From Escherichia phage ESCO13, in the sequence record NC_047770.1: a stretch of 64,000 bases of DNA. One strand, written 5' to 3'. Shown here in pieces: positions 35,103 to 52,199 of the stretch. The notes under the pieces are model-generated. The model was not told the DNA's origin. It saw only the letters and a program-made list of their open reading frames with translations, and made no database searches. Each line of letters opens with the position of its first letter. The stretch's first letter is position 1. The translations under genes and the position numbers were made by a program.

Positions 35103-37700
35103 CTAGTGACAGGACGCCCAGGAGTTACCCACATCATATCCGGCAGTAAGCTGAACATTAAGATTGTAAAATTCTCCAGCCTTAGTAACAGCTAAAGCAG
35201 CAAGTTCACCTGCCCGACTATAGGCTGTAAACCATCCACCTTTGGGAGATTCATGAATGTTAGCCCAAATTTGCCCTGTCTCTTTTTCCTTATTATGCTT
35301 CCATTCTTCAACTTTAGCAAGGCATTCTTTATCAATTTTCTTTTGTTCTTCAGGATCGTCTACTTTCTTCCAACCTAATGATTCAGGTGAAAACCATTTG
35401 AATTCTACAAGGTTACGAGAAACTTCAAGCTGGGCTTCATCGTGATATGCAATCATTTGTTGCACGAAGTCTTTATTCTTCCAGTCATCTTTAAAGAAGT
35501 CAACACTTAGCCCTTCTTCTTCGATCATGTCGTCATAAATAACCATTGCACGTTTAGCACAGATAACCCCACCACTTTGGAACAGAGAGTTAAGAATCGC
35601 GTGAGCAGAACGAGTAGGAACCTTACGACCGTCAATACCCAAAACATACTGTTTACCAGTCTTAACCCAGAAATCGTTTAAACGTTCTTTAAGACGCGCC
35701 AGTGGGAATGCAGCTTCCCAGAAAGCATCGAACACCAGTTGCCCTGTGTATTTATCGCTACCAATTGTTTTAGCAACCTTGTCTGCTTGTGCACCATAAG
35801 TGATCCCGTATTTAACAGATTTCGCCGGACTACGTTCAAACTTACGCCCAATAGTATCTGTAATACGTTTTGCCATCATGGTATGAACATCGTTAGGCTT
35901 CTCTAACAAGAGAGCGTTACAGTATTCATGAGGCTCCGGTTCGTAGCGCCAACAATAATGCGACTCAATCTTTGCTTCCAAAGAGTCGAAGTCATAACCG
36001 ATCTGGAAGTATTTAGGAACTTCTACACCAAACAAGTTACGCATCTCCCATCCAAACAAAGATGTGACACGAGGGATATTGGCTACAGACCTATGCTTCA
36101 TACGAGAGGTTGCAGCATCACATGTAGCGGCTGGTGTAGGAATACGCCCATCCGCCCTTACTGCGGCTAAGAAACCTTTATCGTATTCTTGATCTTCTTC
36201 ATCTTCTTCCCAATCAGCACCGCCACCTAAAATAGAGTTCCTACGATGCTTATACGTTAAGTATTCTACAATCTGAGTAGCATAAGGAAATTTCTCACCC
36301 AAAGCTTGCAGGTTAGGACAGATTTCTTTTTCCTGACCTTTGGTAAAACATGGGTTAGTCAATACTTTAAGACCGCGACCTTTACCTTTTGCTATACGCT
36401 CTTGAATCTTCCTTTCCAAGGTTTCCGGTGTGCACTCCAGATGATCACAACGATCCTGACAAAAATTAGAAGATAGAGTTTGCTCAACGTAAGCTCGAAT
36501 ACCTTTCTGAAGTTCTTCCTCGCTCTTTTTAATCTTGGTGCCAGATTTAAGAGTCAAGTCTTTATCTTTATATTCAGACGGTACCCAACCTAATCCTACA
36601 AGCCAGTTTTTAATATGGGTTGTATCGTTCAATGTTGCAGGGATGTTAGGATCACATAGAGGTTCATCTGCTGCAACTGGCAGTTTCCACTCTTTCCCCA
36701 ACATAACTAACCACCAATCGCCATCCCTCTCTTCCAAATGACCATCATGCTTCTTAGCAAAATTGATCATATGGTTAGTTGGCTCTAAGTTCTTTTTAAT
36801 TTGCAACTTAGGTGGAATAAAAGCCTTAAGATAGCCTTTTGTTGCTGGTTTAGGTGGCAAAATAGGCTCAACGAGTAAACGAAGACGCTCCATTTCTGCA
36901 TCCAAAAAAGCAAGGTTCTCTTCTGCTTGCTTCATGTTAAAAGCAAACCCACGGTGTTCCTGGCGTGTGATAATGTCTGCTACACGTTGTTCAAGTTCAA
37001 ATGGACCTTCCCATTTATCATAATCACCCCATTCTTCCATAAGGTAGTTATATACGCTCGTATTGGCTTTGTTGTCATAGATACAGTAATAAAGCATATC
37101 CGCAGCAAAAGTCTTAAATCGATCTTCTTCTGGAATCTCTTTACGGAAATCTATTTTTACATCACCACCTGCTTTTCGAGAAAGTGCTGCCAAGCTATGT
37201 CCTGATTTGCCCTCAATCTTTCGATCTGGGTTTAACACTTTACTCAAAATCAAGGAGTCAATAAGTTTTACCTTATTTTTGCCCCACGTATTATATTTAA
37301 CACTGTAATCTAATCCATAAAACAGTTTTGTAGCCAACCAGTCGTAGTTGATACCGTTGTGAGCCACAGCCATTTCAACCAGATATTCAGGCTTGTCTTT
37401 AAAATAACCTTCATGATTAATAAAGTCTGGGAAATCTTTTAGTTGAAAATGCGTGTAATCTTGCGCCACATACTCTTTAAGAACATATGTGTATTTACCA
37501 TCTGACTCTTCATAAGGACGCCCATCAAAGATGTATTTAGGGCCATCGTGGAAAGCTACTATTTCTCCTGTTTCATGGTTCTCTAAGACAATACAGTGCA
37601 TTTGAAATGTGTCTTTGAGACGATAAGGACTAGCTAAATAATCAATAGTGTCATTATTCAACAATCCGTTTGCTTCAATATCCCATGTAAACTTACTCAC
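35103..37700 (-). CDS. DNA polymerase, family A, with 3'-5' exonuclease domain
   Basis: 865 aa; N-terminal exo motif DIEANG; motif A-like DFDSLEAKI; motif B-like K..YGITYG; motif C MIAYHDE. Confidence 0.85.
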   Translation of the reverse strand: MSKFTWDIEANGLLNNDTIDYLASPYRLKDTFQMHCIVLENHETGEIVAFHDGPKYIFDGRPYEESDGKYTYVLKEYVAQDYTHFQLKDFPDFINHEGYFKDKPEYLVEMAVAHNGINYDWLATKLFYGLDYSVKYNTWGKNKVKLIDSLILSKVLNPDRKIEGKSGHSLAALSRKAGGDVKIDFRKEIPEEDRFKTFAADMLYYCIYDNKANTSVYNYLMEEWGDYDKWEGPFELEQRVADIITRQEHRGFAFNMKQAEENLAFLDAEMERLRLLVEPILPPKPATKGYLKAFIPPKLQIKKNLEPTNHMINFAKKHDGHLEERDGDWWLVMLGKEWKLPVAADEPLCDPNIPATLNDTTHIKNWLVGLGWVPSEYKDKDLTLKSGTKIKKSEEELQKGIRAYVEQTLSSNFCQDRCDHLECTPETLERKIQERIAKGKGRGLKVLTNPCFTKGQEKEICPNLQALGEKFPYATQIVEYLTYKHRRNSILGGGADWEEDEEDQEYDKGFLAAVRADGRIPTPAATCDAATSRMKHRSVANIPRVTSLFGWEMRNLFGVEVPKYFQIGYDFDSLEAKIESHYCWRYEPEPHEYCNALLLEKPNDVHTMMAKRITDTIGRKFERSPAKSVKYGITYGAQADKVAKTIGSDKYTGQLVFDAFWEAAFPLARLKERLNDFWVKTGKQYVLGIDGRKVPTRSAHAILNSLFQSGGVICAKRAMVIYDDMIEEEGLSVDFFKDDWKNKDFVQQMIAYHDEAQLEVSRNLVEFKWFSPESLGWKKVDDPEEQKKIDKECLAKVEEWKHNKEKETGQIWANIHESPKGGWFTAYSRAGELAALAVTKAGEFYNLNVQLTAGYDVGNSWASCH

Positions 37701-38494
37701 TATTCCTCCTTTCTAATGTTCTCCAGAACCCACTGAAGTTCTTTTAAACTTAAACTTCTTACTCCCGCAGTTTTACTAGCTTCAGCTTTAAGTAACGGGT
37801 AAGCCTCAATGATACGCGTTTTAAGATCAGAAGTCAAGGCTTTTAAAAAATAGGTAGATGCTTCAGATAAAGAATCTTCTTCTGATAACACTTTACCTGC
37901 ACTTGCTCCCGCTCTCCTAACGGCTATATCGTAGTCTTTACTGTTACCTAATACGAATAGTCGATTCTCTCCTAAAACAACGGGAGAACGCTTCTCGTTG
38001 CGTTTAATCCATATCTGGAATACACAAGGAACATCCCAAGGTTCTCCATGAAGAATAAAAGATCCTTTTGGACATTCTTCTTCGTAAAGAAGATGCATGT
38101 GGGGATTTAGTTTGTGTGCAAAAAAGATTTTTTGAAATGTGCGAGGCAAGATAAAACAAATACCACCTTCGTTATCCAACATTTCAGCACAATGGTTAAA
38201 GAACTTAATGGCAAGACTAGCATTTTTTCCAAACGGAGGATTACCGACAAAAGCAGTTACACTACCAACAGACTCTACAGATTGAGCTAAAAAATCTGCC
38301 TCAATACAATCTTCAAACTTAGGATCAATATCAAAAGAAGTTATGTTTTTAAAACAAGAAGAGAAAGCTCCTTCTCCCGCAGATGGTTCTACGTAGTTAG
38401 CTTCCTCTCCAAAAATTTCTTTGATCTTATCACATAAGAACCCCGCATAAGCGGGGTTAGTGTAATATTGATCAAGTGTGTTCAACTTGCTCAA
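37700..38494 (-). CDS. SAM-dependent DNA methyltransferase (N6-adenine/N4-cytosine type, NPPF motif)
   Basis: 264 aa; motif I VEPSAGEGAF; motif IV FVGNPPFG; stop overlaps the polymerase start. Confidence 0.6.
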   Translation of the reverse strand: MSKLNTLDQYYTNPAYAGFLCDKIKEIFGEEANYVEPSAGEGAFSSCFKNITSFDIDPKFEDCIEADFLAQSVESVGSVTAFVGNPPFGKNASLAIKFFNHCAEMLDNEGGICFILPRTFQKIFFAHKLNPHMHLLYEEECPKGSFILHGEPWDVPCVFQIWIKRNEKRSPVVLGENRLFVLGNSKDYDIAVRRAGASAGKVLSEEDSLSEASTYFLKALTSDLKTRIIEAYPLLKAEASKTAGVRSLSLKELQWVLENIRKEE

Positions 38495-39013: not shown

Positions 39014-39029
39014 AAGGGCCGAAGCCCTT
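39014..39029 (-). terminator. Hairpin at the 3' end of the primase-helicase gene (terminator candidate)
   Basis: AAGGGC-CGAA-GCCCTT overlapping the stop codon, followed on the minus strand by TTATTAAAAA. Confidence 0.3.
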
Positions 39030-40806
39030 AGTAGTTGCTATCCGTAGGCAAATTAGCAGGATTGTTGAAATACTGCTCTTTGTCATGCAGAGTTGCAGTT
39101 CTAATGTCATAGTAAAACTGCCCTGCCGGACCAGTTTCCGAGAACTCACGGTTTTTTAGGATAAAGCAATGAGTCGTATTGCGTTCTACAGGGTCTTCAG
39201 CGGCTTTATCTCGTTCCAAAGCCAAGGTAATACCAGCACCTTTAGCCAAGAAACTACTACCCATTGCATCGTCCTCTGTTAAGTGTTCATTGCCACCATT
39301 AGCCGATTTCTTAACGTGTGAGATGACGATAATAGTTATAGCATACTCTTTCATGATGCGCTTCAACCATGTTGCTAACTCTTCCTGGGCTTGAACATCC
39401 ATACCAGAAAGCAAATCAGAATAAGGGTCGATAACAAGAATTGTTACTCCAAAATAGATGATCATCTCCAAAACTTTTTCTTTGATAGACTCCACATCTG
39501 CTCCACGATCATCACACACATAAAAACGTGGTGATCCATCTTCTCTTTCGTAAAAATCTAGGATTTTTTCTTTATTCTCTTCCAAGATTTGAAATTTCTC
39601 TTCCGGTGTTTTCCTGTGTAGAGGAATATGCAGGAACGAGGACAACAGGTTACGAGAATACTTCTTATAAGTTGCTTCCAAGGACAGAATGCCTAGGGTA
39701 TGTTCTGGGTGCGCAACAATGATATGTTTGGTGATCTCGTTCACCATCAAAGTTTTACCGATACTGGTCTTTGCCAGGATGACTGTAATCTCTTCCTCTA
39801 CTAAACCACCACCCAGCATATTTGCAGCAACACGCATAAAAGGAGGCAAGGTAATCATCTTGGATTCCAAGCATTCTAATGCAGCTTCATACAAGACATT
39901 AGAAGCATAAACACCTGCTGGGGTGTATAGACGAGCACTCCAAAAAGCTTTTACGAAATCTTTTGCACGACCTTCTTCCAGATATTGATTGGCATCCTTA
40001 AGATCCATCTGCATACGGTAGACTTTGTTACGAGGCAGCACCTTAACAATATTTTCAAATGCCTCATTACCTGCTTTGTCATTATCCATGCAAACAATAA
40101 TCTTCTTAAATTTTTCAAAGAAAGGGTATTGTGCCTGAACTTGTTTATACATACTGGTTTCACCAGTTGTGCCACTTACTACGGCTGGAAGCTCATATTT
40201 ACTGTCCAAGTTTTCAGATAGCATTTGATAAGCTGCCAGAGCATCGTGTTCACCACCTGTAATTACAACAGTATGAGAACGGTCTGCAAAACGAATTTGT
40301 CCAAAAAGATCTACATCTTTACCTACTTGACCAATAGGTTTACTGAAATCTTTAGGATGAATACGACGCTTAAAACCAACCAATTCTTTACCGATGGTAG
40401 TCGGATATAAACAACTTTCTACTACCATCTGATCTCCTTCCTGACGGTATTCATAACGAACACCATAGAAAGATGAAACTTTTTCTTTAATGCCTCGATA
40501 ACCACGTGGGTTGGTTGATGTTTCTTGAACAATTTTACGATGAATCTGTTTATTAAATTCCGAACCCACAATCTCCTCCTCTTCTTCTAAAACTTCACCA
40601 TTTTCTCGTAACCATTCTACGCTAGGAATAGTGTATTCACACGCAAAGCACTTAGCACCTTTATGCTCTCCATTAGAATCTAATCCGTAAACCATCAGGT
40701 TATTACGAGAGCGATCCTTGCCATTTTTCATGCAGCGCGGACAACCTGTATGTCCTTCCTTGCTAAGATCAACATCAAATCCATATTTAGTTATAATGTG
40801 CGACAC
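39028..40806 (-). CDS. DNA primase-helicase (T7 gp4-like)
   Basis: 592 aa; N-terminal Cys4 zinc ribbon (CPRCMKNG...CFACEY); TOPRIM-like region; Walker A ILAKTSIGKT; DnaB-like C-terminal domain. Confidence 0.8.
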   Translation of the reverse strand: MSHIITKYGFDVDLSKEGHTGCPRCMKNGKDRSRNNLMVYGLDSNGEHKGAKCFACEYTIPSVEWLRENGEVLEEEEEIVGSEFNKQIHRKIVQETSTNPRGYRGIKEKVSSFYGVRYEYRQEGDQMVVESCLYPTTIGKELVGFKRRIHPKDFSKPIGQVGKDVDLFGQIRFADRSHTVVITGGEHDALAAYQMLSENLDSKYELPAVVSGTTGETSMYKQVQAQYPFFEKFKKIIVCMDNDKAGNEAFENIVKVLPRNKVYRMQMDLKDANQYLEEGRAKDFVKAFWSARLYTPAGVYASNVLYEAALECLESKMITLPPFMRVAANMLGGGLVEEEITVILAKTSIGKTLMVNEITKHIIVAHPEHTLGILSLEATYKKYSRNLLSSFLHIPLHRKTPEEKFQILEENKEKILDFYEREDGSPRFYVCDDRGADVESIKEKVLEMIIYFGVTILVIDPYSDLLSGMDVQAQEELATWLKRIMKEYAITIIVISHVKKSANGGNEHLTEDDAMGSSFLAKGAGITLALERDKAAEDPVERNTTHCFILKNREFSETGPAGQFYYDIRTATLHDKEQYFNNPANLPTDSNY

Positions 40807-40818: not shown

Positions 40819-41097
40819 TTAAAATGGTTCGTTAGTCTCCATCATATATTCTGCTTCTAGTTCTTCCATGTGCTTTCTAAATTGGAAAGCAATTTCTGCT
40901 ACAGTTACATTTAAATCTTTTTCAAAAACTTCTGTAGATCCTTCATAAAAACGAATACCGTCAATTAAAAGCCCTCCGTGGTAATCCCAATCGCTTTCAC
41001 GAGAAAGTGGATTAGGTTCTTCATAATAGTAATCCACCTCCACGACCAAGGCTTTCCCGTTACGAGTGGTGTATTCAAAATCAAAAGTGTTAATCAT
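40819..41097 (-). CDS. Hypothetical protein
   Basis: 92 aa ORF, coupled to the downstream gene. Confidence 0.4.
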   Translation of the reverse strand: MINTFDFEYTTRNGKALVVEVDYYYEEPNPLSRESDWDYHGGLLIDGIRFYEGSTEVFEKDLNVTVAEIAFQFRKHMEELEAEYMMETNEPF

Positions 41098-42041
41098 TAT
41101 AGCTCCTCAAATAAAAGTCTACGACGCTCATTCAACACATCAATGTGATAATGAGTCCTGACATACTTAGCTAATGCTAATCCTTTCTCCATGCAAACAT
41201 CGGGAGCACTTAATAAGTATTCCGTAATATCTTTCCACTCGGAAGGTGTTTCAGCAAAGAATAACAAATCTTTAAACTCTTGTGTATGATAATTCTCACG
41301 AGGAGAGCAGATTAAAGGTAAACCCTTAGCACCTGCCTCAAGAATTTTAAGATTGCTTTTTGCATTATTAAACACGTTATCGACCAATGGTGCAAGACTG
41401 ATTTGATGACCATCGTAAGATTCCATGTAGTTGGCATATGGTCTTACACCTTCATAAACACTAGTTGGTGCTACATTTTCTCTAATTACAGACCATTCAC
41501 GACTACTTAAAACTTCAGAATCCCTACGAAAACCACATATTGTAAGATCTTTACCAAAATCGGGCAAGATAGCCAAATCTTGTTTATGTGTTTCACTTCC
41601 AGCCCAGACTAATGGAGTTTTGGAGTAGCGATCACGGGTCAACACAAATTGACCTTCATCGTAAGGAAGTCCATTAGGGATTATGTGCACATTATCATTG
41701 TATTGTGAAAGTTCAACTTGCAAAGCAGGTGTCGTAGTTGTAACAAGATCACTGTGCTCTAAAAACCATTTTAAATGTTCACGAATACCTGATTCAAAAA
41801 TACCTTCTAACATGTGTCCTTTTGGAATAACTAAAGAGTCATCCAAATCCATAACCATTTTAAAGCCCAGGTTTTTAAGGGCTAAAAAGCCCTCTTTACC
41901 TTTTGTTGGCACTCCGTTAAAAACGAAAACGTTGTATTTAGGTTGTGAAGAGAACTGCCTTGAGTAAGGCAGCACTACCCTATGGAAATCGCAGACACTA
42001 TAATTGATTCCGTTACGATTGTCAAGAATTATTTGTCCCAT
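41097..42041 (-). CDS. Glycosyltransferase, GT-B-like (paralog 1 of tandem pair)
   Basis: 314 aa; shares with 42049-43035: C(D)FHRVV(L/I)P, DLDD, NxLPxDxGQF, VWAG, LAPLVDNxFNNxKSNLKILEAGAKG, VRTHY. Confidence 0.45.
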   Translation of the reverse strand: MGQIILDNRNGINYSVCDFHRVVLPYSRQFSSQPKYNVFVFNGVPTKGKEGFLALKNLGFKMVMDLDDSLVIPKGHMLEGIFESGIREHLKWFLEHSDLVTTTTPALQVELSQYNDNVHIIPNGLPYDEGQFVLTRDRYSKTPLVWAGSETHKQDLAILPDFGKDLTICGFRRDSEVLSSREWSVIRENVAPTSVYEGVRPYANYMESYDGHQISLAPLVDNVFNNAKSNLKILEAGAKGLPLICSPRENYHTQEFKDLLFFAETPSEWKDITEYLLSAPDVCMEKGLALAKYVRTHYHIDVLNERRRLLFEEL

Positions 42042-42048
42042 ACTTCAC

Positions 42049-43035
42049 CTACAAACTTTCAATAACCTGGCGTCGCAATTCGTTTGCATCTGCCAGATTA
42101 TAATGTGTTCGAACATGTTCCGCTAAGAACAAGCCACGATCTTCCCGATAGTTCGGATTGCGAAGAAGCTTAACAATTTCGTAATGCCATTCTGCTTTAT
42201 TCTCTGCGTAAGCAACAGCGCGAGCATCTACAGGGTTAAAATAAGGTAATATCTTAGAACAAACAATTGGAATACCTTTTGCCCCAGCTTCCAAGATTTT
42301 GAGATTACTTTTACAATTATTAAAATCGTTATCTACCAGAGGAGCTATAGCAATAGCATGACCCTCGTAAACACTCATGTAATTATCTAAATCTTTTACA
42401 GCGGCTTTATATTTAGCATTTGGTAAATTTCTGCGAATCTTAATCCACTCTTGTCCCGTGATGCTCTGTGATGCCTCATATCCCGCAATAGTAAGAAGTT
42501 CATCGTCGAAAGTATTAGAGACTAGTCGTAAGTCGGGTTCGTGACTAGCACCGCCAGCCCATACGACAGGGGTACCGGATGAACGATCATTTGACAAAGT
42601 GAATTGTCCGCTATCAAAAGGAAGTGCATTTCGGATCACAACAACATTCCTATTTAAGTGACGGATCTTATATGCCAAGTATTCCGTAGTCACAATGACC
42701 ACATCAGCAAGCTTAACCATAGCTACAATAGAATGGGTGTTTGACTCGTATAGACTTGCTAAATAATGTTCTGGATTAAGTTGGTAGAAATCATCTAAAT
42801 CTACAACAATCTTAACACCTTGACGTTTCAGGGACAGAACATATTCTGCCCCTTTAGAATGAATACGGTTAAACACGACAACATCTTTCTTAGGCTGAAA
42901 ATTATTGTTGTTAAATGGTATAACAATACGATGATAATCACAACCACTGTGAGGTTTTGCATCAATTTTCAGTTTAGTCCATTTTTTATTTGACATGTGC
43001 CAGTGCCTCCTCATAAGAAATTCGGATTTTCCCAT
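42049..43035 (-). CDS. Glycosyltransferase, GT-B-like (paralog 2; likely start at ATG 42996)
   Basis: Clear paralog of 41097-42041; ATG at about 42996 has RBS GGAGG and removes most of the overlap with the upstream gene. Confidence 0.45.
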   Translation of the reverse strand: MGKSEFLMRRHWHMSNKKWTKLKIDAKPHSGCDYHRIVIPFNNNNFQPKKDVVVFNRIHSKGAEYVLSLKRQGVKIVVDLDDFYQLNPEHYLASLYESNTHSIVAMVKLADVVIVTTEYLAYKIRHLNRNVVVIRNALPFDSGQFTLSNDRSSGTPVVWAGGASHEPDLRLVSNTFDDELLTIAGYEASQSITGQEWIKIRRNLPNAKYKAAVKDLDNYMSVYEGHAIAIAPLVDNDFNNCKSNLKILEAGAKGIPIVCSKILPYFNPVDARAVAYAENKAEWHYEIVKLLRNPNYREDRGLFLAEHVRTHYNLADANELRRQVIESL

Positions 43036-43669
43036 TTTTAATATCTTCTAAAGACGCTTTATATTCTTCCCAGTTAATGCCAATAGCAGCTTCTTTCTCT
43101 TCTTTTGTCAGATTAGCAAAAGGCATAGGATTGTTTCCAAAAACATCGTCTGGGTGGATATAAGCCATGATACGAAGTGGACAAGGTATTGCCTGAATGC
43201 CCTGATTCAAACCAGCAGCTTTCAAACGGTGTACCCATTCAGCATCTTCAAAACCATAGCCGTGAGTGTAAGGGCGGAAATAACCCATCTTCTCAACAAC
43301 GGCACGAGAATACATTGCAAATTGACACATTGCAAGTTCCCAGAGAATAACTTCTCCTTTACTCCCAACAACTTTATCTTTGAAATACTCCGGCATACCA
43401 AAGAAATCCCATCCTCCAGAGACAGCTTGATCTACAAAATATGTTTCCCATCCCTCCATGATTGGGTAGCAATCGTCGTCAAAAATAAACCAATAATCAT
43501 AACCTTCTTCATAAAACTGGTGCATAAGTTCATTCCTGGCGTAAGCTACACCTTTACGATCTGGATCGTTGAATACTCGAAAATCTGCATGTGGATCTGT
43601 TACAAGATAGTCTTTAAGTGGACGGACACCTACAGTGATAACACCCACTCCGATTTTAATATTTTCCAT
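42986..43669 (-). CDS. Glycosyltransferase, GT-A-like (DxD)
   Basis: 227 aa; WFIFDDDCYP (DxD-type) and GYGFEDAEW motifs. Confidence 0.45.
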   Translation of the reverse strand: MENIKIGVGVITVGVRPLKDYLVTDPHADFRVFNDPDRKGVAYARNELMHQFYEEGYDYWFIFDDDCYPIMEGWETYFVDQAVSGGWDFFGMPEYFKDKVVGSKGEVILWELAMCQFAMYSRAVVEKMGYFRPYTHGYGFEDAEWVHRLKAAGLNQGIQAIPCPLRIMAYIHPDDVFGNNPMPFANLTKEEKEAAIGINWEEYKASLEDIKNGKIRISYEEALAHVK

Positions 43670-43677
43670 TTTCTCTC

Positions 43678-44241
43678 CTAGATAGTTTTACTGTGATCGT
43701 GACAGTGTAATAAATGATGTATAGACCGTTGAGGATTTGTTTGACCTAATCTGTAAATGTGAAACAGATACATTCCCCGCATCAATCCTAACCTTTTTCC
43801 TTTTTCATGTAAAGTGCGAGAGAAAATTAGGTCGAATTGGATAGATTTTTCTTCGAAAGGAATTTCATTCCACAATGATTTTCTAAAAAGCAAAAAGAAA
43901 CCTGCCAGAGGTGTTCCGAAAGGAACTTCTTCAACACTCACTTTATGATATTCTCTTGCAATCTTAGCATATTCTATATGGTTTAGAATATTTGGATCAT
44001 CGTTAATTTGGTTAGAGAAAAGCTGATAACCACTACCTAACCTGTTACAAGTTGCACCTATTACATCAAAAGGCGGGTTTGACATAATAAGCTCTTCAAG
44101 CATAGATGGTTGATCAGGCAGGAGGAACATTGTATCGGTATCTCTTAAGCACACCCAACTATCATCTGGAAGAACGGCAATAGCTTCATTGATAGCCTTG
44201 CCGATATTTCCTGTCAGATAGGGAGTAATATAATAAATCAT
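43678..44241 (-). CDS. Putative GT-A-like glycosyltransferase
   Basis: 187 aa; LRDTDTMF DxD-like motif; weak. Confidence 0.3.
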   Translation of the reverse strand: MIYYITPYLTGNIGKAINEAIAVLPDDSWVCLRDTDTMFLLPDQPSMLEELIMSNPPFDVIGATCNRLGSGYQLFSNQINDDPNILNHIEYAKIAREYHKVSVEEVPFGTPLAGFFLLFRKSLWNEIPFEEKSIQFDLIFSRTLHEKGKRLGLMRGMYLFHIYRLGQTNPQRSIHHLLHCHDHSKTI

Positions 44242-44258: not shown

Positions 44259-44450
44259 TTAACTGTCAGCTACAATCCCACGTTTAATCATTTCTTGTTG
44301 GATTTGGATGACACGATCTCGTGCTTCCATATATTCTTTAAAAGATTCTTGGAGATGGTCACGAGCTACATCCCGTAGTTTAATCAGCTTGTCGTTTGTC
44401 ACTTCTTGAAGAGAGATCTCGCCAGTTTCATTGGTCCCAAGCGTTTTCAT
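44259..44450 (-). CDS. Hypothetical protein
   Basis: 63 aa ORF. Confidence 0.35.
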   Translation of the reverse strand: MKTLGTNETGEISLQEVTNDKLIKLRDVARDHLQESFKEYMEARDRVIQIQQEMIKRGIVADS

Positions 44451-44706
44451 TTACAACCTCCTTAATAGCTACTGCACAGTTCTTACAAATACATTGACCT
44501 TTGTTCTTAGAAATTTCAATGTAAGGTTCATTTTCGTTTTCTCCGCGTCGTGAATCGTATATTACAGTATTGAAGCAGACAACGCAAATGTTTTTAATAA
44601 CAACATATTTTTGCACTTTTTGTTTAGTGCGAAAATTTACTTCAATGACTTCTCCCATCAGTGAATCTCCCCTAAAATGTTGTTTTGAGACATTACTGCG
44701 GAGCAT
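44428..44706 (-). CDS. Small Cys4 zinc-finger-like protein (likely start at about 44658)
   Basis: CVVCFN...CICKNC; internal Met gives a start overlapping the upstream stop. Confidence 0.35.
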   Translation of the reverse strand: MLRSNVSKQHFRGDSLMGEVIEVNFRTKQKVQKYVVIKNICVVCFNTVIYDSRRGENENEPYIEISKNKGQCICKNCAVAIKEVVNENAWDQ

Positions 44707-45005
44707 TCTACAGCATCATGAGTCCTTGCAAAACGCTCCCACAGCACAGCATCTACTTTAAGAACCATACAAGGATAAATACTGTCGTTGATCATATCAA
44801 TGCTATATTTATCTACATCCTTTTCATCTTCCATAAACAAAGTAGCGTATGCTTCCAAATGTTTACGGGTGTAGTATACGTCCTCTTCGGTAAGACCGAC
44901 AACCAGGTAACTTGCTACAACAACAGTATTATCTTCTTGCATTTTAACTCCCCTTTGGTAGATAGAAACCATGCACTTTATCTCGATAAACAAGACGCAT
45001 ATCAC
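44658..45005 (-). CDS. Hypothetical protein (likely start at ATG about 44942)
   Basis: Internal Met preceded by AGGGGAG, 1 nt after the hydrolase stop. Confidence 0.4.
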   Translation of the reverse strand: MICVLFIEIKCMVSIYQRGVKMQEDNTVVVASYLVVGLTEEDVYYTRKHLEAYATLFMEDEKDVDKYSIDMINDSIYPCMVLKVDAVLWERFARTHDAVECSAVMSQNNILGEIH

Positions 45006-45465
45006 GCTCCCAGTGTGTCCTTATATTCCGTTTCTTGAAGTATAGAGCACCTTTAGTAACATCTAAAACAGACCGCAATTCAGGAAAATGTTTCTCTAAA
45101 TAAAGTAAACGCTCCGCTATTGCTTTTGCTTCCTGCCACTTATCTTTCTCTGTCACGTTAAAAGTTTTCGCATATGAGAATTGCCCTTTCTGGAACAAGA
45201 CTCCCTTGACTGTGTTAGGGAAGTAGGCATCATTTCTTCTGTTGATTACCACATTCCCAACGGCATTCATTCCTTTTTTACCCAGACCGCGACCTTCTGC
45301 GTAAATTGCACAAGCTAATAGAATTTTATCATTATATTGCTTTGTACATTTGTGAACTACTTTAGCGGTTTTTACGTTTGCAGCTTCGGCTTTCGCCACA
45401 ACAGGTGTAAATGTAAAAGCAGTTAAGGATAGTAACGCAACTGTTACAAAGTTTTTTATCAGCAA
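44944..45465 (-). CDS. Secreted cell wall hydrolase, SleB/CwlJ family (endolysin candidate; TTG start)
   Basis: 173 aa; N-terminal signal peptide MLIKNFVTVALLSLTAFTFTPVVAKA; Hydrolase_2-like core LLACAIYAEGRG...NVVINRRND...VLFQKGQFSYAK; RBS AAGGAGG. Confidence 0.65.
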   Translation of the reverse strand: MLIKNFVTVALLSLTAFTFTPVVAKAEAANVKTAKVVHKCTKQYNDKILLACAIYAEGRGLGKKGMNAVGNVVINRRNDAYFPNTVKGVLFQKGQFSYAKTFNVTEKDKWQEAKAIAERLLYLEKHFPELRSVLDVTKGALYFKKRNIRTHWERDMRLVYRDKVHGFYLPKGS

Positions 45466-45565: not shown

Positions 45566-46168
45566 TTATGGACATTCATACCATTCTTTTTTACCACCGA
45601 AGGCCATCACCACATCGCAAATATCCAGACCAGCTTTACCTACACCATATGCTTTCAGCTTCCATTCTCCATCTTCACGAACCAGGGAAGCCACGTGGCA
45701 GATTGTGTTGCCAGCTACTTCAGGAGCCAGGAAGTCAAAATCCAGAATTTCCACATTGCGCTCGGAGTCGAAGATTTTAAGCATACCTTCAGAAGCATGA
45801 CCAAAACGTTTCAGACCTGTATCATCATCAATGGTCAGAACAAAGGCAATCTCTTGTGCATCAGGAGAGATTTTAGCCAGAGTAATATCAATCTGCTCCA
45901 TGCTGCCAGTTCCATCACGAACATCGTCACCAGCGAAGGTAGAACGTTCAGGATCAAACTTGTTAGCATAGCAAACCAGATGACGTGCAGATAGCATTTC
46001 AGGATTGCCAGCGGCATTGTGACGACAAACCAGTGCACTTACATCCAGATCCAGTTTAGAATCAGATTTCCAAGAGAATTCCAGACGCAGTTCTTTCAGA
46101 GCCGGAGCAACTTTCTTCAGGGAAATTTTTTCGCTAGAACCTTTTTTCAGGGAAATTTTATCAGTCAT
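45566..46168 (-). CDS. terD: TerD-domain protein
   Basis: 200 aa; N-terminus MTDKISLKKGSSEKISLKK (TerD-type ISLxKG strand, duplicated); acidic GDDVRDGTG region; size typical of TerD. Confidence 0.65.
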   Translation of the reverse strand: MTDKISLKKGSSEKISLKKVAPALKELRLEFSWKSDSKLDLDVSALVCRHNAAGNPEMLSARHLVCYANKFDPERSTFAGDDVRDGTGSMEQIDITLAKISPDAQEIAFVLTIDDDTGLKRFGHASEGMLKIFDSERNVEILDFDFLAPEVAGNTICHVASLVREDGEWKLKAYGVGKAGLDICDVVMAFGGKKEWYECP

Positions 46169-46183
46169 CTTTTGTCTCCTCTA

Positions 46184-46453
46184 TTATTTAAGTGTAATAC
46201 CAGTTACAGTCAATTCTACTTCCAAAAGCTTAGATGTGTTTTGGATTGATACTAATTGTGCATGATGGTTTAGTTCTACAGCAGAATAATCATTTTCCCC
46301 ATCATCTACTTTTAAATAAACAATGATTTCACTAAGGTCTAAACCATTTTCGTCAAATGCATTTTCATAGACGAAAGTATCTCCTACATCCAAATCTTTA
46401 ATGGTAAGGCATCGTTTATTTACTTTTTGCTCATCAATTTCGAAGTTTAACAC
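46184..46453 (-). CDS. Small acidic protein, paralog A (upstream partner of TerD)
   Basis: 89 aa; paralogous to 47475-47819 (DLDVGDTFVY...LEVELTVTGITLK versus DLDVGATFMY...VEVDLEVTNITLKKEK). Confidence 0.45.
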   Translation of the reverse strand: MLNFEIDEQKVNKRCLTIKDLDVGDTFVYENAFDENGLDLSEIIVYLKVDDGENDYSAVELNHHAQLVSIQNTSKLLEVELTVTGITLK

Positions 46454-46682
46454 TTCTTCCTCCTAATGTTATCTCCGGTTTGTATATACGAAGAATTATA
46501 GCATTTTCATTTTCTTTGTCAACCCATTCTTCATAATCAGGCCATACATGAATCTCTACTCTACTTACAATATCTTCCATTCGCACAGTCCCAATGAAAT
46601 ACTCTTTGAGACTGCGCATAATGAAAGCTTCTCTCTCGCGCCAATAATTTTCTATGACTTGAGAGGCAAGCTCGTCGATCAT
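46434..46682 (-). CDS. Hypothetical protein
   Basis: 82 aa; start overlaps the vWA stop. Confidence 0.4.
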   Translation of the reverse strand: MIDELASQVIENYWREREAFIMRSLKEYFIGTVRMEDIVSRVEIHVWPDYEEWVDKENENAIILRIYKPEITLGGRSVKLRN

Positions 46683-47473
46683 TTTTTAGCACCTACTTTA
46701 ACAACCCACTCTCCGAACTCTTCAGATAAGAGTTTGTCATAAAGCTCTGAATCTGTCAAGTCTAAATCTTTAATGCCAATAAAACCAACATTATCATAAG
46801 CATTTGCCAGTTCTTTCAGGAAGCCAAACTTCTCATTACCAACGCCAACCATGAACCAATAAATAGGTTTATTCTTATTCTCTTCAATAAGACGACGAAC
46901 AGCACTAGGATCACCATTCTCACCATCCGTCTGGAAGAATACAACACCAGGGGTAACGTCAGCACCTGGTTCAGACACAGCTACAACCTTTTCACGCTCT
47001 ACAGATACTGTTTCAGTTTTACCAAGCAGACGATTAAAGAAGCCTTTCTTTGGAGCCTCCTCTTGTACCACTTGTTTAGTGGTAATATATTTGGTAACAG
47101 TGCCAAAATACTCATCGTAGATATCTGCCATTACAGGGGCGTAATTTGTTCCACCTCCGATACGAACATTACGCATACATTTACCAACATAGTCATCGTA
47201 AACGTCTGCTGTTGCTGGAGTAAGCTCTTGGGAACTCGTATTGAAGGCCCACATATCAATTTGTTGATTATCGTCGAACAGCATACCAAAAGGAAGCAGT
47301 TTACCTACAAAATCACTCACTACCCCACTAGAATATAGACCATGCATACTACCAGAAATATCTAGAGCACATGCTACACGAAGAACAATCTTACCTTCAT
47401 TCAGGTTCTTATTCTTTTTCAGAGAGAAAGCAAGGTTTTCTTGACGTTTTTTCAGGCTGATTTTCTCGGACAT
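46679..47473 (-). CDS. von Willebrand factor A domain protein (TerY-like)
   Basis: 264 aa; MIDAS motif DISGSM, GGTNY and TDGENG elements; N-terminus MSEKISLKK resembles the TerD N-terminal strand. Confidence 0.65.
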   Translation of the reverse strand: MSEKISLKKRQENLAFSLKKNKNLNEGKIVLRVACALDISGSMHGLYSSGVVSDFVGKLLPFGMLFDDNQQIDMWAFNTSSQELTPATADVYDDYVGKCMRNVRIGGGTNYAPVMADIYDEYFGTVTKYITTKQVVQEEAPKKGFFNRLLGKTETVSVEREKVVAVSEPGADVTPGVVFFQTDGENGDPSAVRRLIEENKNKPIYWFMVGVGNEKFGFLKELANAYDNVGFIGIKDLDLTDSELYDKLLSEEFGEWVVKVGAKK

Positions 47474-47474
47474 A

Positions 47475-47819
47475 TTATTTCTCCTTCTTAAGTGTAATAT
47501 TGGTAACTTCTAAATCTACTTCCACCATATTTGTATCTGGTGGGATGCAATGAGTATAGCCTCGTTGTGCTAGTGATCCATTAATACAAATCGCACTGTT
47601 TGTGGAATTTTTAATGAACACCAAGTTACGGTAGGTATCCAACCCTGCGTCTTCATAGGCATCATAATACATGAATGTGGCCCCTACGTCAAGATCTTCG
47701 AAAGCAATAGGTAAATCCTGACTTTTTTCTTCTTGAATATTGAATCTAAACACGCATACCTCCTCTACCAATTTTGAAGCCCAAATCGTAAGCTTCCTTA
47801 GTGATCTTTTGTAACTCAC
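47475..47819 (-). CDS. Small acidic protein, paralog B (upstream partner of vWA; GTG start)
   Basis: 114 aa; paralog of 46184-46453; the homologous region starts about 22 residues in. Confidence 0.45.
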   Translation of the reverse strand: MSYKRSLRKLTIWASKLVEEVCVFRFNIQEEKSQDLPIAFEDLDVGATFMYYDAYEDAGLDTYRNLVFIKNSTNSAICINGSLAQRGYTHCIPPDTNMVEVDLEVTNITLKKEK

Positions 47820-48309
47820 TTATAGGAAGTGTTACAAGAGGATCATCTTCTTCAATTTCCATCTTGTCATCTTCTGTTTCAATGAGAGTATTATGCACTT
47901 TGTGATAAGGGTTGTCAACACGTTTAAACTTATTCTTTTCTGTGCTGAAAAAACAATCTGGATCTTCTTCGCCATCACCCCAACCTTGGTTAGGATCTCC
48001 GTCAGATTGTTCTGTAGGGATTTCACCTGTAAAATACTCTTCCAGCACCATAGCGATACCATCCCTTGGATTCGAGGAATGCATTAAATCACAAACCTTA
48101 CCCCAATCCATAGCCCATTCGAACCGTTCACGAACGCCATTTTCATCCTCCTTTCCAGAGAAAACACAACCATAACTATCATAGTTGCCATACATCTCTT
48201 CAATAACAACACCGTCCTTCAAAAGAAAGAGATAACAAGGTGATCCGTCGAAAGAAGTAGAAAGGGCAGCTTTGCCCGATTCTTTGCACAAAAAGCTAAA
48301 ACAACCCAT
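47746..48309 (-). CDS. Hypothetical acidic protein
   Basis: 187 aa ORF, coupled to neighbours. Confidence 0.4.
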   Translation of the reverse strand: MGCFSFLCKESGKAALSTSFDGSPCYLFLLKDGVVIEEMYGNYDSYGCVFSGKEDENGVRERFEWAMDWGKVCDLMHSSNPRDGIAMVLEEYFTGEIPTEQSDGDPNQGWGDGEEDPDCFFSTEKNKFKRVDNPYHKVHNTLIETEDDKMEIEEDDPLVTLPISELQKITKEAYDLGFKIGRGGMRV

Positions 48310-48512
48310 TACAAACCCTCCTTCAGATTATCAAGAGCTACAGTGGTTTCACAAAATTCTCCATAAGCTTTATGATGTTCCAGAAAAGCTTCGGGTCCAC
48401 CCCAATCATTGTCTTGTGTATTCCAGCCATCAATAAAAGCATCTTCAATGATTGTGATCAGTTCTTGTCGGGTTAACTGGATAATATTAGGGTCGTTATC
48501 GTAGTTAAACAT
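48309..48512 (-). CDS. Hypothetical protein
   Basis: 67 aa. Confidence 0.35.
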   Translation of the reverse strand: MFNYDNDPNIIQLTRQELITIIEDAFIDGWNTQDNDWGGPEAFLEHHKAYGEFCETTVALDNLKEGL

Positions 48513-48678
48513 CCTCTTCCTCCTCTAAAATATGGAACCCGTAATTACAATAGTCCTGAAAGGTTTCGTGTGCAAGATCTTCTATATCCTCTTGAGACAT
48601 ATCATCTTCAATTTCGATATCCACAACCTCATTGCATCCACACCAAGCAGTTTCAATATTCACTCGTAATATTTTCAT
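48505..48678 (-). CDS. Small ORF not in the track (about 57 aa), translationally coupled
   Basis: ATG overlaps the upstream stop (TAATG); its stop overlaps the next ATG; protein MKILRVNIETAWCGCNEVVDIEIEDD... Confidence 0.3.
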   Translation of the reverse strand: MKILRVNIETAWCGCNEVVDIEIEDDMSQEDIEDLAHETFQDYCNYGFHILEEEEDV

Positions 48679-48878
48679 TACTCCTCCTCCTCCTCATTGA
48701 AGTCAATATCTGCAAGGAGTTCGAATTTACGGAAGTTACGACAACCTTCATAAATATAACAATCACGACAAACTGCTAGAACACTTGGGGGATATATGCC
48801 TCCCATCGGCGCGAATCGTTTTTCGTCATCATAACGGACACCAATGTCCTCATCAATTATATAGATACGGATTCTCAT
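48678..48878 (-). CDS. Hypothetical Cys-containing acidic protein
   Basis: 66 aa; CRDCYIYEGC; poly-Glu C-terminus. Confidence 0.35.
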   Translation of the reverse strand: MRIRIYIIDEDIGVRYDDEKRFAPMGGIYPPSVLAVCRDCYIYEGCRNFRKFELLADIDFNEEEEE

Positions 48879-49987
48879 TTACCAAGCCCTCGTTTCACAG
48901 CAGCTACCATCCCGTCTTCCAAAGATTGAACTTCATTAATATAATCAACACGAGCAGCACGGGCTTCCGTATTGATGCGGTTAGTTTCTTCCAACATCTT
49001 AACCAAGTTTTCCTGATCGTGACGCAGAGTTTCAATATCCAACACTTGACGGTTAGCCAGTGCTGCTGCTTCGATCTGATTCTGTGTGGCAAGATCGCTA
49101 CCCAGTTTAATTGCCAGGTTAAATTCATCAAGAACGTTATTCTGCGTCTCTGCTGCTTTCATTTGACGTAAGCTCTCGATATACATTGAGAAGTTAGCAG
49201 AGTAAGCAGGAATAACATTATTTACTATGTTACGCGCAGATCGCATTAAGCTTGCAGAAACTTTTTGCATACCTTGTACACGCGGTCCCATTTGGACACA
49301 CAGTAGGCGCAATGCTTTTAAATCTGCAATACGAATCTCCAGAAGATCCAAAGTATCTCGGATCACTTGTCGCTGTTCTACTGCATCTTCTGGAAGAGCA
49401 GCCAAAGCTTGTTCTTCTTTTTCATAGGTTGCTGTTAGAAGCTGCATATCTCGGTTCAAACTTGCAGCATATTGTCCAATAGCTTGATGTAGCTTTTCAA
49501 GATATACCAAGGAATCTTCTTCTTTGCGAATATCCATTTGAAGGTTTTTTACCAACTCTTCAATACGGTTATTAACATTATCAAACTCCCCAAACAGATC
49601 TTCTTTCATACCCATAACTTTTTTAATGAGTTTAGTAATACCCTTGCTTTGTTTAATAGAGTTTGGATCAAGTTGTTTTGCCTGTTTAATCAAAGCTGTG
49701 AGTCGTTCACTCATCTGATCGCCTTGATTACTACGTTGATGTTTTAATACCTCGGCATTCAAGGAACGCAAGGTTGTTCCTGCCTCTGCCCCAATCTCTT
49801 CGATCTCTTGTCGGGTCATAGAAGGCAAAACTGGAACTTCTTGCGGTGCCGCTGGTGCATAAACAGGACTGGCATCTAACACGCTTGGAGCGAATACAGA
49901 TTTACTTGCATCTGTTGTTGCAGCAAATACGCTCATTTCAGGCTTCTTCTGACCGCCAGTAGCTGCTTTTAAAAATGGACTTGTCAT
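48875..49987 (-). CDS. TelA-like (toxic anion resistance family) helical protein
   Basis: 370 aa, helical/coiled-coil throughout; size and composition resemble TelA/YceH-family proteins; supported by the TerD/vWA/TerC context, not by a confirmed motif. Confidence 0.4.
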   Translation of the reverse strand: MTSPFLKAATGGQKKPEMSVFAATTDASKSVFAPSVLDASPVYAPAAPQEVPVLPSMTRQEIEEIGAEAGTTLRSLNAEVLKHQRSNQGDQMSERLTALIKQAKQLDPNSIKQSKGITKLIKKVMGMKEDLFGEFDNVNNRIEELVKNLQMDIRKEEDSLVYLEKLHQAIGQYAASLNRDMQLLTATYEKEEQALAALPEDAVEQRQVIRDTLDLLEIRIADLKALRLLCVQMGPRVQGMQKVSASLMRSARNIVNNVIPAYSANFSMYIESLRQMKAAETQNNVLDEFNLAIKLGSDLATQNQIEAAALANRQVLDIETLRHDQENLVKMLEETNRINTEARAARVDYINEVQSLEDGMVAAVKRGLGK

Positions 49988-50574
49988 TCTTCATTCTCCT
50001 CTTCTGCATCTCTTATATATGGTGAAACACCGTACTCTTTAGCTACTTTAACCCAATCGTCCCATTTATACAACCATAATTTTCCTTCGGTCCCTTCTTT
50101 ATCTGATTTCAACCACATATTAGGTTGCTTACCTGGGTACATGCGATTAGGTTTACGATTATAACCTCTAACACATCTTGTCGCAAACCTATCTACCAGA
50201 ACAAGAACATATTTATATTCGTGGTTCAACGGCTCTTTGGAAGTGGCTTTAGGATTAGCCCCTAACTCTGCTGCCAGTTTTTGCCAATGAGCACCGTGTC
50301 TACTAAACTTACCCATACAACCATCAATAGCATGAGCAATTTCGTGCTTCATTGTATCCACGATCATATCTCTTGTAGAGTTCTTATGCAAGTGCCAATT
50401 TACAACAACAATTTTATCTCGGTAGTTGCACCAACCGAAAGAGTTATTCACTTTGTTTCTAACACAAGCTTTATATCCTGCTTCACGTAACATGTTGTAG
50501 TAAACAGGAAAATCTTCTTTTATTTCCTGCATCACTTCCCACCACAAGAGTTGCAAGTCTCTCTCGGTATACAT
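49984..50574 (-). CDS. SprT-like zinc metallopeptidase domain protein
   Basis: 196 aa; MKHEIAHAIDGCMGKFSRHGAHW (HExxH followed by HGxxW). Confidence 0.55.
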   Translation of the reverse strand: MYTERDLQLLWWEVMQEIKEDFPVYYNMLREAGYKACVRNKVNNSFGWCNYRDKIVVVNWHLHKNSTRDMIVDTMKHEIAHAIDGCMGKFSRHGAHWQKLAAELGANPKATSKEPLNHEYKYVLVLVDRFATRCVRGYNRKPNRMYPGKQPNMWLKSDKEGTEGKLWLYKWDDWVKVAKEYGVSPYIRDAEEENEE

Positions 50575-50577
50575 AAC

Positions 50578-51171: not shown

Positions 51172-51185
51172 TGTTTTTCTCCTTA

Positions 51186-51698: not shown

Positions 51699-51806
51699 CT
51701 CGGTATAAACTCACTTTACTGCCGTTGATTACGCTTGTCAATACAAAAATTACAACAAACAACCCTATTGCAAAACAAATATTTTCAAACACAACCAACA
51801 AGTATT

Positions 51807-52157
51807 TCATTTTAAAAATACCTCATCATCAGTTTCATTATCCCAGAAGAACAAGTCCCAACCATTCGGATCATTCCATTTAGCTGCTGGAGAAGTCCAT
51901 ATTTGCTCGATATCAATATTCAAAACTTCACCGTTTCGTTTTGAAACAGCTTTAGTTAATTCCCAACGGGATACAGGCTCCACTTCCCCTGAACCACTCC
52001 CACAACAAGCTACCACATTAGGAGGCAAATTAATTGGATCTTTGGTCACGATCATAACGCTTACCCCAGGGTAAACTTTTGAAAGATAATCTAAAACGTA
52101 ATCCACATCACCAGATAAATCCCAAACAAGTTCTTGAATTTCATCAAAATTACTCAT
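51807..52157 (-). CDS. Hypothetical protein
   Basis: 116 aa; RBS AGGAGAG. Confidence 0.4.
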   Translation of the reverse strand: MSNFDEIQELVWDLSGDVDYVLDYLSKVYPGVSVMIVTKDPINLPPNVVACCGSGSGEVEPVSRWELTKAVSKRNGEVLNIDIEQIWTSPAAKWNDPNGWDLFFWDNETDDEVFLK

Positions 52158-52169
52158 AAGTCTCTCCTA

Positions 52170-52193: not shown

Positions 52194-52199
52194 CATTTA

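Follow-up and report, generated by a model that had tools for sequence, protein, structure and literature searches.

A four-gene glycosyltransferase operon of Escherichia phage ESCO13 as an expanded form of a modular viral cassette, with a virion protein as possible acceptor

The genome of Escherichia phage ESCO13 (NC_047770.1) holds four consecutive glycosyltransferase (GT) genes in the middle of its replication genes, which raises the question of what glycan their products build, from which sugar, and on which acceptor. The DNA analysed here (the window) is a stretch of 64,000 nucleotides of this record, and its source is a Phapecoctavirus (Stephanstirmvirinae). Coliphages of this genus and of the related phi92-like group have a broad host range, have been isolated repeatedly for therapy and biocontrol, and are used in therapy cocktails. 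The 3.7-kb region of the cluster is 99.5% identical to that of Escherichia phages nieznany and Ro121lw, and 95–99% identical to that of about 60 further records. All four proteins—named here GT187, GTA227, GTB2, and GTB1, in the order of transcription—are already called glycosyltransferases in RefSeq, and the cluster is an annotated, uncharacterised glycan-assembly operon; what is new is the cassette family to which it belongs, the ancestry of GTB2, the co-distribution with rhamnose (rml) genes, and the late-operon position of the cassette in small phages. It is very probable that the four genes are transcribed together as a single operon, that they encode soluble cytoplasmic enzymes (two GT-A and two GT-B) which build a short oligosaccharide by successive transfers, and that the operon represents an expanded version of a mobile viral cassette.

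The original prediction of four glycosyltransferases was borne out, since the open reading frames (ORFs) were confirmed on the minus strand where it had placed them, and all four proteins match PHROGs annotated as glycosyltransferases with E values from 1e-79 to 1e-149. Its assignment of two GT-B and two GT-A folds is likewise upheld by profile matches and fold prediction. GTB1 and GTB2 are, judging from their sequences, GT-B enzymes of the GT4-like type. Both match phrog_7162 (2.5e-149 for GTB2 and 9.8e-145 for GTB1) and fall just below the Pfam threshold for Glyco_trans_1_2 (24.9 bits for GTB1 and 19.4 bits for GTB2, with a cut-off of 25), with weak Pfam matches to Glyco_transf_4 and Glyco_trans_1_4. 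A family profile built from 25 GT-B homologues and searched against all PDB sequences at E ≤ 10 recovered the C-terminal domains of GT4 enzymes, such as TreT (E = 1e-4) and BshA and MshA (E = 0.07–0.15); neither BGT (GT63) nor AGT (GT72) of T4 was among its matches. The KSNLKILEAGAKG block with E235 is near-invariant in the family, and both copies are probably active, because every invariant family residue (P25, D67, D68, G148, G170, P218, K228, and K232 in GTB1) is retained in each of them.

For GTA227 and GT187, single-sequence and profile searches of the PDB sequences returned chance matches only, and fold prediction was therefore required. The predicted models assign both proteins to the Rossmann-like GT-A fold, GT2-like, with a DxD metal/nucleotide-sugar motif; the motif residues of GTA227 are R45, DDD at positions 64–66, and E141–D142. 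No relationship between the two GT-A proteins was detectable by sequence comparison or hhalign, and none of the four proteins matched NCBIfam.

The closest solved folds include the polysaccharide and teichoic-acid enzymes K4CP, GlfT2, TarP, and RmlT, which speaks for a role in the host envelope. In such a role, lipid-linked intermediates on the cytoplasmic side of the inner membrane would be the substrates of the enzymes, which would remodel an envelope glycan during infection—lipopolysaccharide (LPS) core or O-antigen, enterobacterial common antigen (ECA), or capsule precursors—to block superinfection or to prevent the adsorption of progeny to debris. GT4- and GT2-type enzymes combined with dTDP-rhamnose are the standard toolkit of O-antigen synthesis, and Stephanstirmvirinae recognise surface glycans including ECA and LPS core (PMC8594841). 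However, the four enzymes lack any membrane-spanning segment: no 19-residue Kyte–Doolittle window exceeds 1.65 in any of them, and no hydrophobic stretch of transmembrane length was found in the flanking small ORFs either.

The four genes are closely packed, with spacings of −11 to +8 nt, and the start of GTB2 overlaps the end of GTA227 by 11 nt. The longest ORF of GTB2 spans 42049–43035, and no Shine–Dalgarno sequence of the GGAGG kind was found at its ATG at 43035, whereas the ATG at 42996 has GGAGG 9 nt upstream. The latter agrees with the 315-aa RefSeq model as well, and 42996 is therefore taken as the real start. The ribosome-binding site of GT187 is also strong (GGAGGGGGAG), so that a strong Shine–Dalgarno sequence is present at both starts examined, and a scan for minus-strand terminators found none within the four-gene cluster. 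The tight spacing, the Shine–Dalgarno sequences, and the lack of an internal terminator together lead to the reading of the cluster as one operon. A sigma-70-like promoter match at 42025–41997 was not taken as meaningful, as it falls within the coding region of GTB1.

Over 303 residues, GTB1 and GTB2 show 42% identity (E = 2e-78), with comparable divergence in the N-terminal (38% identity) and C-terminal (45%) domains, and they share the block LAPLVDNxFNNxKSNLKILEAGAKG; the paralogy proposed from this block goes far beyond chance. The tandem duplicate is, however, older than its earlier description had implied. GTB1 is 37–39% identical to homologues in unrelated phages, near its 42% to GTB2, and every outside homologue tested is closer to GTB2, as is the case of a Serratia prophage gene (50%, versus 39% for GTB1). 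In a neighbour-joining tree, a simple distance tree that is indicative, the GTB2 orthologues fall together with genes present in single copy, namely those of the Serratia prophage, of contig L014, and of Klebsiella phage KP2025, whereas the GTB1 orthologues form a separate, old clade in the phapecoctavirus-like, Tr1-like, and L013 lineages. Taken together, these relationships mark GTB2 as the family's ancestral copy in this lineage and GTB1 as an old, divergent paralog. Since GTB1 is barely closer to GTB2 than to genes of unrelated phages, and GTB2 clusters with single-copy genes, either an ancient duplication or a second acquisition would account for the pair. The tree is indicative of a pair older than the split of the three lineages that carry GTB1, and in KP2025 the loss of GTB1 and GTA227 appears to be secondary.

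Homologues of the GT-B proteins are few in the protein database and abundant in IMG/VR, where at least 571 loci encode a relative with the signature KSNLK[IVM]LE. A scan of one genome per species, covering about 185,000 bacterial and archaeal species, yielded 24 loci only; where phage genes can be recognised, the locus resembles a prophage, and the final five encode unrelated giant multidomain proteins. The family is essentially virus-specific, with almost no members in cellular genomes outside prophages. This near-absence from cellular polysaccharide loci argues against remodelling of the host envelope.

The company of the GT-B gene varies from phage to phage. An HK97-like prophage of Serratia carries a GT187 homologue, a GTA227 homologue, and one GT-B in the same order as the window, while KP2025 holds 187+B at the syntenic site, and other carriers show 227+B, 227+B+187, B+187, B alone, or 187+B+B (Tr1-like). 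Gene neighbourhoods were analysed at 73 IMG/VR loci, many of which come from one related environmental phage group and are not independent, and a 227-like GT-A lies directly upstream of the GT-B in 28 of them. A hexapeptide-repeat acyltransferase, encoded directly two genes upstream at 15 loci, and, at 9 loci, a methyltransferase of the Methyltransf_23 family are recurrent partners of a sugar-tailoring kind. This pattern suggests that the GT-B is the constant member of the cassette and the GT-A enzymes its variable partners, and that the window cluster is an expanded, lineage-specific version of a modular GT-A/GT-B viral cassette family not delineated before. With its signature, its constant GT-B, and its at least 571 viral loci, the family also offers an experimental handle, as several of its carriers infect tractable E. 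coli K-12. Polysaccharide loci, too, often contain acetyl- and methyltransferases as partners, which is in keeping with an envelope target, but no flippase, polymerase, or Gtr-type partner was present in any locus examined.

Two unannotated protein families are closely linked to the GT-B gene in environmental phages (L084 and related IMG/VR loci; examples are L052:122–601, L083:1387–1806, and L059:1934–2854). The first, of 160 aa, lies upstream of it in 36 loci. Its interpretation as a divergent GT187 was rejected (hhalign probability of 0.1%); by eye it resembles a sigma-70 region-4/HTH late regulator, with no supporting family match. The second is a basic protein of 140 aa (pI about 8.9), directly downstream of the GT-B in 28 loci; the part of phrog_2859 that it matches is also matched by the N-terminal region of an XkdF-type serine-protease fusion protein from other loci.

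In small phages, the cassette usually stands at the front of the late packaging/head operon, often together with sugar-tailoring acetyl- and methyltransferases. Five further phage types have the cassette, or a 187-like domain, inside the packaging and head module or at its start. In the Serratia prophage it is flanked by the lysis genes and HNH-TerS-TerL, in a P22-like contig by terminase and portal, and contig L006 encodes a hexapeptide transferase and a GT2 shortly upstream of TerS-TerL. The order sigma-like regulator, GT-B, acetyltransferase, GT-A, and then TerS and/or TerL is shared by a large group of environmental phages and Bacteroidota prophages; at two of these loci TerS precedes the sigma-like gene, which places the GT genes between TerS and TerL. 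Cellulophaga phage phi18:1 encodes a 407-aa glycosyltransferase with a C-terminal 187-like domain between its portal/head-morphogenesis and protease/capsid genes. Finally, in Pseudomonas prophages a Ser/Thr-rich Ig-domain structural protein is encoded directly upstream of a GT-A/GT-B pair, and the genes for TerL, portal, and head protease come after the pair.

As an observation in its own right, that structural protein (phrog_215; L091:7645–8268 in a prophage of Pseudomonas sp. App30, and also in L092 and L016) is very rich in Ser, Thr, and Ala, and may be regarded as a candidate acceptor of O-glycosylation; its called start is probably too far upstream, in a GC-rich genome.

Regarding the sugar donor, the nearly identical phage nieznany encodes a complete rhamnose pathway outside the region corresponding to the window, with rmlB, rmlA, rmlC, and rmlD as gp040–043 among genes for ribonucleotide reductase, ThyX, and glutaredoxin. 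Record counts from tblastn searches are the same for RmlC and GT187 in Escherichia phages (104/104), Campylobacter-labelled phages (5/5), Phapecoctavirus (3/3), and Justusliebigvirus (3/3), both queries also match the divergent relatives KP2025, phi1_175008, Tr1, and phiWec179, and Klebsiella phage 05F01 has RmlC together with a GT-B homologue. The distribution of rmlBACD thus equals that of the cassette in every large myovirus lineage examined. Because the two share their distribution across such a deep divergence, dTDP-L-rhamnose made by the phage rmlB-A-C-D operon is, on balance, the probable donor in at least one step. These phages devote some 6.5 kb to the four transferases and the complete rhamnose pathway, and a supply of its own would free the phage from dependence on the O-serotype of the host. 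The small phages with the cassette show no sugar-pathway genes in the stretches fetched, and therefore presumably draw on the nucleotide sugars of their hosts. A 'putative dTDP glycosylation machinery' of these phages was already mentioned by Maffei et al. 2021 (PMC8594841), and Olsen et al. speculated that the rhamnose goes onto hydroxymethylated bases (PMC7552041). No published experiments on the product of the cluster, on rhamnose in phage DNA, or on glycosylated phi92 virions were found in the literature.

Several records labelled as Campylobacter phages (MG065650, MG065639, MG065656, MG065645, and MG065659, with C. jejuni given as host) match in the manner of E. coli phages: MG065650 is 98.7% identical to the window in DNA, and the other four stand at the protein identity of phi92-like or rV5-like coliphages. 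From these identities, the five records are probably mis-assigned or contaminant.

As to the acceptor, a phage-encoded protein, most likely a component of the virion, is favoured here with a probability of roughly 0.35. The four transferases would act successively in the cytoplasm, before or during particle assembly: the GT-B, as the constant member of the cassette, would start the chain on the acceptor, and the variable GT-A partners and the second GT-B would lengthen it into a short oligosaccharide. This reading is drawn from the late position of the cassette with particle genes, the solubility of the enzymes, the combination of multiple GTs and tailoring enzymes, the virus-specific family, and the phage's own nucleotide sugar, all of which resemble features of the glycosylation systems of mycobacteriophages and giant viruses. 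Rhamnose is among the sugars made by the nucleotide-sugar pathways of giant viruses, whose capsid glycans contain it. According to the reports on PBCV-1 Vp54 and Mimivirus (PMC4691112, PMC10117803), these viruses decorate their own particle by means of a virus-encoded nucleotide-sugar pathway and several cytoplasmic GT-A-type enzymes, without relying on the machinery of the host. In mycobacteriophages such as Che8 and Myrna, capsid and tail-tube proteins are glycosylated by phage-encoded GTs (Freeman et al. 2023; PMC11256854, PMC12619734). These clusters share with the one studied here several soluble, cytoplasmic, phage-encoded GTs in a tailed phage and an oligosaccharide product, and many relatives of the cassette adjoin structural genes as well. 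Unlike them, the system of the window belongs to a phage of a Gram-negative host, has its own rhamnose pathway, lies in the replication block, and is predicted from its genes; the only link to mycobacteriophage-type GTs is a 24–26% identity to actinophage enzymes in tblastn.

The case for a virion protein is, overall, circumstantial, and several observations weigh against it. In phapecoctaviruses the cluster itself lies in the replication block, between the primase–helicase and a Ter-like stress module, and the rml genes lie among those of nucleotide metabolism. A place close to the terminase, as in the other phages, is equally characteristic of DNA methyltransferases, of ParB-like nucleases, and of DNA-glycosylation clusters (Pyle et al., bioRxiv 10.1101/2023.12.21.572611), and hence position alone does not discriminate; moreover, the shared origin of many of the 73 loci lowers the number of independent cases. 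In a scan of the structural protein sequences of the window, no terminal tail stood out as a Ser/Thr-rich acceptor. That the GT-B proteins have GT4-like relatives is no argument against a DNA acceptor, since validated DNA GT-Bs also resemble BshA and MshA, and glycoproteins in this phage group are so far gene-based predictions. The wider proposal that Stephanstirmvirinae use rmlBACD and the four GTs, as a self-sufficient pathway, to attach an oligosaccharide containing rhamnose to the proteins of their own virions, and that the cassette, which hundreds of uncultured phages have at the front of the late operon, is a general system for glycosylating phage particles, is accordingly put forward as tentative and somewhat doubtful. 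With a virion target, if true, phages of Gram-negative bacteria would gain their first system of this kind, virion glycosylation would extend beyond actinophages, and there would be consequences for how antibodies recognise therapeutic phages, how stable these are in serum, and how they interact with mucus.

DNA was the first acceptor to be suspected, because of the replication-block position of the cluster and the nucleotide-metabolism setting of the rml genes. That genomic setting, as originally described, was confirmed with all its neighbours: the cluster lies between the primase–helicase and the endolysin region, near the gene for an N6-adenine methyltransferase. Seen more widely, it sits between the DNA polymerase/primase–helicase and other replication genes. 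In this scenario, an enzyme that has escaped recognition would make a hydroxylated or otherwise reactive base at some sites, and the GTs would add a rhamnose-containing glycan after replication. Such sparse or sequence-limited glycosylation would give no general resistance to restriction, and might counter a specific defence or mark phage DNA for packaging. Phage DNA GTs have been described as GT-A enzymes with the signature R...DDD...ED(Y/F) or as GT-B enzymes resembling BshA/MshA, which may act in pairs; their clusters include some with two successive GTs that yield di- or trisaccharides, and similar neighbours (terminase, ParB, and methyltransferases) surround them (Pyle et al. 2023, bioRxiv 10.1101/2023.12.21.572611). 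Fold and neighbourhood consequently do not exclude DNA. The R45, DDD, and ED residues of GTA227 resemble the signature of validated DNA GT-As, but the residue after the E141–D142 position is A, S, or T, not Y/F, and the R/DDD/ED motifs are generic to GT2. GTA227 also has a weak match to the Pfam family TAGT (E = 0.0013), although this reaches only 19.2 bits against a cut-off of 27.5 and covers residues 33–68 only, and a TAGT protein ranks just 35th among the viral structure matches (E = 7e-5). The 227-like family is, in addition, acidic (median pI of 5.3; net charge of −13 for GTA227), which does not favour DNA.

The systems in which GTs modify DNA are defined by a base-activating partner, either a ThyA homologue that makes 5-hydroxymethylcytosine (5-hmC), 5-hydroxymethyluracil (5-hmU), or 5-hydroxycytosine (PMC13326640), or a methylase combined with a TET-like 5mYOX. 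The absence of a hydroxymethylase gene, noticed earlier for the window, extends to the annotation of nieznany (1–104 kb), where the only thymidylate synthase is of the ThyX type and no ThyA-type hydroxymethylase, dCMP hydroxymethylase, 5-hydroxycytosine synthase, or TET/5mYOX is annotated. A divergent 'ThyX' of 332 aa was considered as a novel base-hydroxylating enzyme and rejected, as it is present in 1033 phage records, most of them without these GTs (its carriers include rV5-like, ICP1, PB1-like, and N4-like phages). The genes flanking the putative cytosine methylase of nieznany encode no TET-like or other relevant Pfam domain. A C5-cytosine methylase does lie upstream of the cassette in 7 of the 73 loci, which is in favour of a DNA target, but no dioxygenase was found among the recurrent neighbour clusters of these loci (not all singleton neighbours were scanned). 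A 252-aa protein beside the C5-methylase in environmental loci was considered as a dioxygenase and rejected; without a conserved histidine, it cannot be a 2OG-Fe(II) enzyme. In small temperate phages with the cassette, too, base-modification genes were not visible within the stretch fetched. Compared with the TET/5mYOX- and ThyA-associated clusters (Pfam TAGT, PF20691), the cassette shares phage-specific GT-A/GT-B enzymes, motifs resembling R/DDD/ED, and terminase, ParB-like, and methyltransferase neighbours; unlike them, it has no 5mYOX or ThyA partner in the genome annotation or beside the cassette elsewhere, its TAGT score is sub-threshold, and the DNA of its carriers can be restricted.

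Two genes of nieznany, gp068 (L002:33128–33811) and gp051 (L002:26200–26709), are called 'Dcm' DNA methyltransferases in RefSeq and show no Pfam match at E ≤ 0.01. Their activity as methyltransferases is uncertain, because the annotation rests on viral orthologous groups only.

Restriction data bear on the same question. The BASEL collection's phi92-like phages are 'exceptionally susceptible' to restriction–modification systems in vivo (PMC8594841), and two of them, JohannJBalmer and PaulScherrer, carry the full GT cluster together with the rml genes. Neither the phapecoctavirus ESCO25, 98.9% identical to the window over the cluster region, nor the phi92-like ESCO9 and ESCO32 belong to the three phages in their collection that were reported to resist HincII (PMC10269720); they appear to represent HincII restriction-pattern groups, and their virion DNA is read as cut because of their absence from the resistant set. 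In T-even phages and similar systems (α-gt and β-gt of T4, RB69, and DLP3), phage-encoded GT-A/GT-B enzymes of lytic myoviruses glucosylate or arabinosylate DNA, and in RB69 and DLP3, which carry arabinosyl-5-hydroxycytosine, the GTs are paired with phage nucleotide-sugar synthesis and chains of several sugars are possible (PMC13326640). However, these systems replace all cytosines through a ThyA-homologue step, and their DNA is highly resistant to restriction, neither of which appears to apply to the window phage. Thus, DNA glycosylation of the bulk, anti-restriction kind is disfavoured, and the sparse variant is unlikely. If DNA were nevertheless the target, this would be a modification with no known base-activating enzyme and no protection from classical restriction. 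The two functions suggested originally, glycosylation of phage DNA and alteration of host polysaccharide, have therefore fared differently: the former is not supported, given the lack of a base-activating enzyme and the restriction-sensitive relatives, while the latter was neither supported nor removed.

The envelope alternative has a known phage-borne counterpart in the serotype-converting Gtr modules of prophages (GtrA/GtrB/GtrC), which resemble the cluster in being phage-carried glycosylation genes that alter a glycan. These modules differ from the soluble GTs of the lytic window phage in that they are embedded in the membrane, depend on bactoprenol as carrier, and work in lysogens, and neither the GtrA flippase, the GtrB bactoprenol glucosyltransferase, nor a GtrC was a neighbour in any locus examined. 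The phage is strictly lytic, and its temperate relatives keep the cassette among late genes rather than at the positions typical of lysogenic conversion. A function in remodelling the host envelope is consequently quite improbable.

There is, finally, the neighbourhood on the other side of the cluster, where genes for TerD, vWA-TerF, and TelA adjoin it both here and in KP2025, and where, by the annotation of nieznany, TerC and phosphatase genes come farther on in that block. This proximity could point to yet other targets: a small molecule tied to the Ter-like stress module, a host protein modified for takeover or anti-defence, or RNA such as tRNA. Protein-glycosylating GT-A toxins and effectors are well known, and about 11 tRNAs have been reported for the phage (PMC7552041). 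However, the cassette is widespread in phages without Ter genes, and the Ter adjacency is therefore regarded as lineage-specific synteny. Transfer RNA genes were not noticed in the fetched stretches, in which no scan aimed at tRNAs was made, and four transferases with tailoring enzymes point to an oligosaccharide and not to a single inactivating sugar. Targets of this class are very improbable.

Table 1. Coordinates of the glycosyltransferase genes and of neighbouring features in the window
Feature	Coordinates	Strand	Description
DNA polymerase	35103–37700	minus	865-aa ORF
N6-adenine methyltransferase	37700–38494		neighbour of the cluster
Primase–helicase	39028–40806		neighbour of the cluster
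Acidic 92-aa ORF	40819–41097	minus	pI 4.2; function unassigned; phrog_4240 (unknown function) match, 1.2e-32
GTB1	41097–42041	minus	314 aa; second GT4-like GT-B glycosyltransferase (predicted)
GTB2	42049–42996	minus	315 aa; GT4-like GT-B glycosyltransferase (predicted)
GTA227	42986–43669	minus	227 aa; GT2-like GT-A glycosyltransferase (predicted)
Antisense ORF	43154–43681	plus	175 aa
GT187	43678–44241	minus	187 aa; minimal GT-A glycosyltransferase (predicted); first GT of the operon
Small upstream ORF	44259–44450	minus	63 aa; syntenic upstream of GT187
Small upstream ORF	44428–44706	minus	92 aa; CxxC...CxxC cysteine pairs; syntenic upstream of GT187
SleB-type hydrolase	44944–45465		neighbour of the cluster
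Ter-like stress module	45566–53174	minus	adjoins the GT cluster; block syntenic in Klebsiella phage KP2025
TerD	45566–46168	minus	
vWA-TerF-like	46679–47473	minus	
TelA	48875–49987	minus	
SprT-like metallopeptidase	49984–50574	minus	
TerC	about 52200–53174	minus	mapped from the nieznany annotation; phosphatase/hydrolase genes beyond

Small ORFs flank the cluster on both sides (Table 1). The acidic 92-aa ORF is translationally coupled to the end of GTB1 through a 1-nt overlap, and a homologue with 35–100% identity directly follows GTB1 in related large myoviruses (L009–L013 and L017). On the other side, the two small upstream ORFs have the same orientation as the cluster and precede GT187 in the myoviruses L010–L012, L014, L015, and L017; neither of them matched Pfam, and their membership of the pathway is inferred from synteny only. 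The antisense ORF, which lies opposite nearly all of GTA227 in an AT-rich region, is most likely a chance ORF.

Elsewhere in the window, the GC skew changes sign at about 32 kb, positive before and negative after, which coincides with the switch from plus-strand structural genes (about 1–32.5 kb) to minus-strand replication and metabolism genes. The DNA polymerase gene differs in its layout among relatives: in nieznany a single coding sequence of 1189 aa (L001 5332–8901) is followed by an HNH endonuclease gene, and in KP2025 the polymerase is annotated in three pieces. Together with the ORF of the window, these layouts suggest an intein, intron, or homing-endonuclease polymorphism of the polymerase gene in this phage group.

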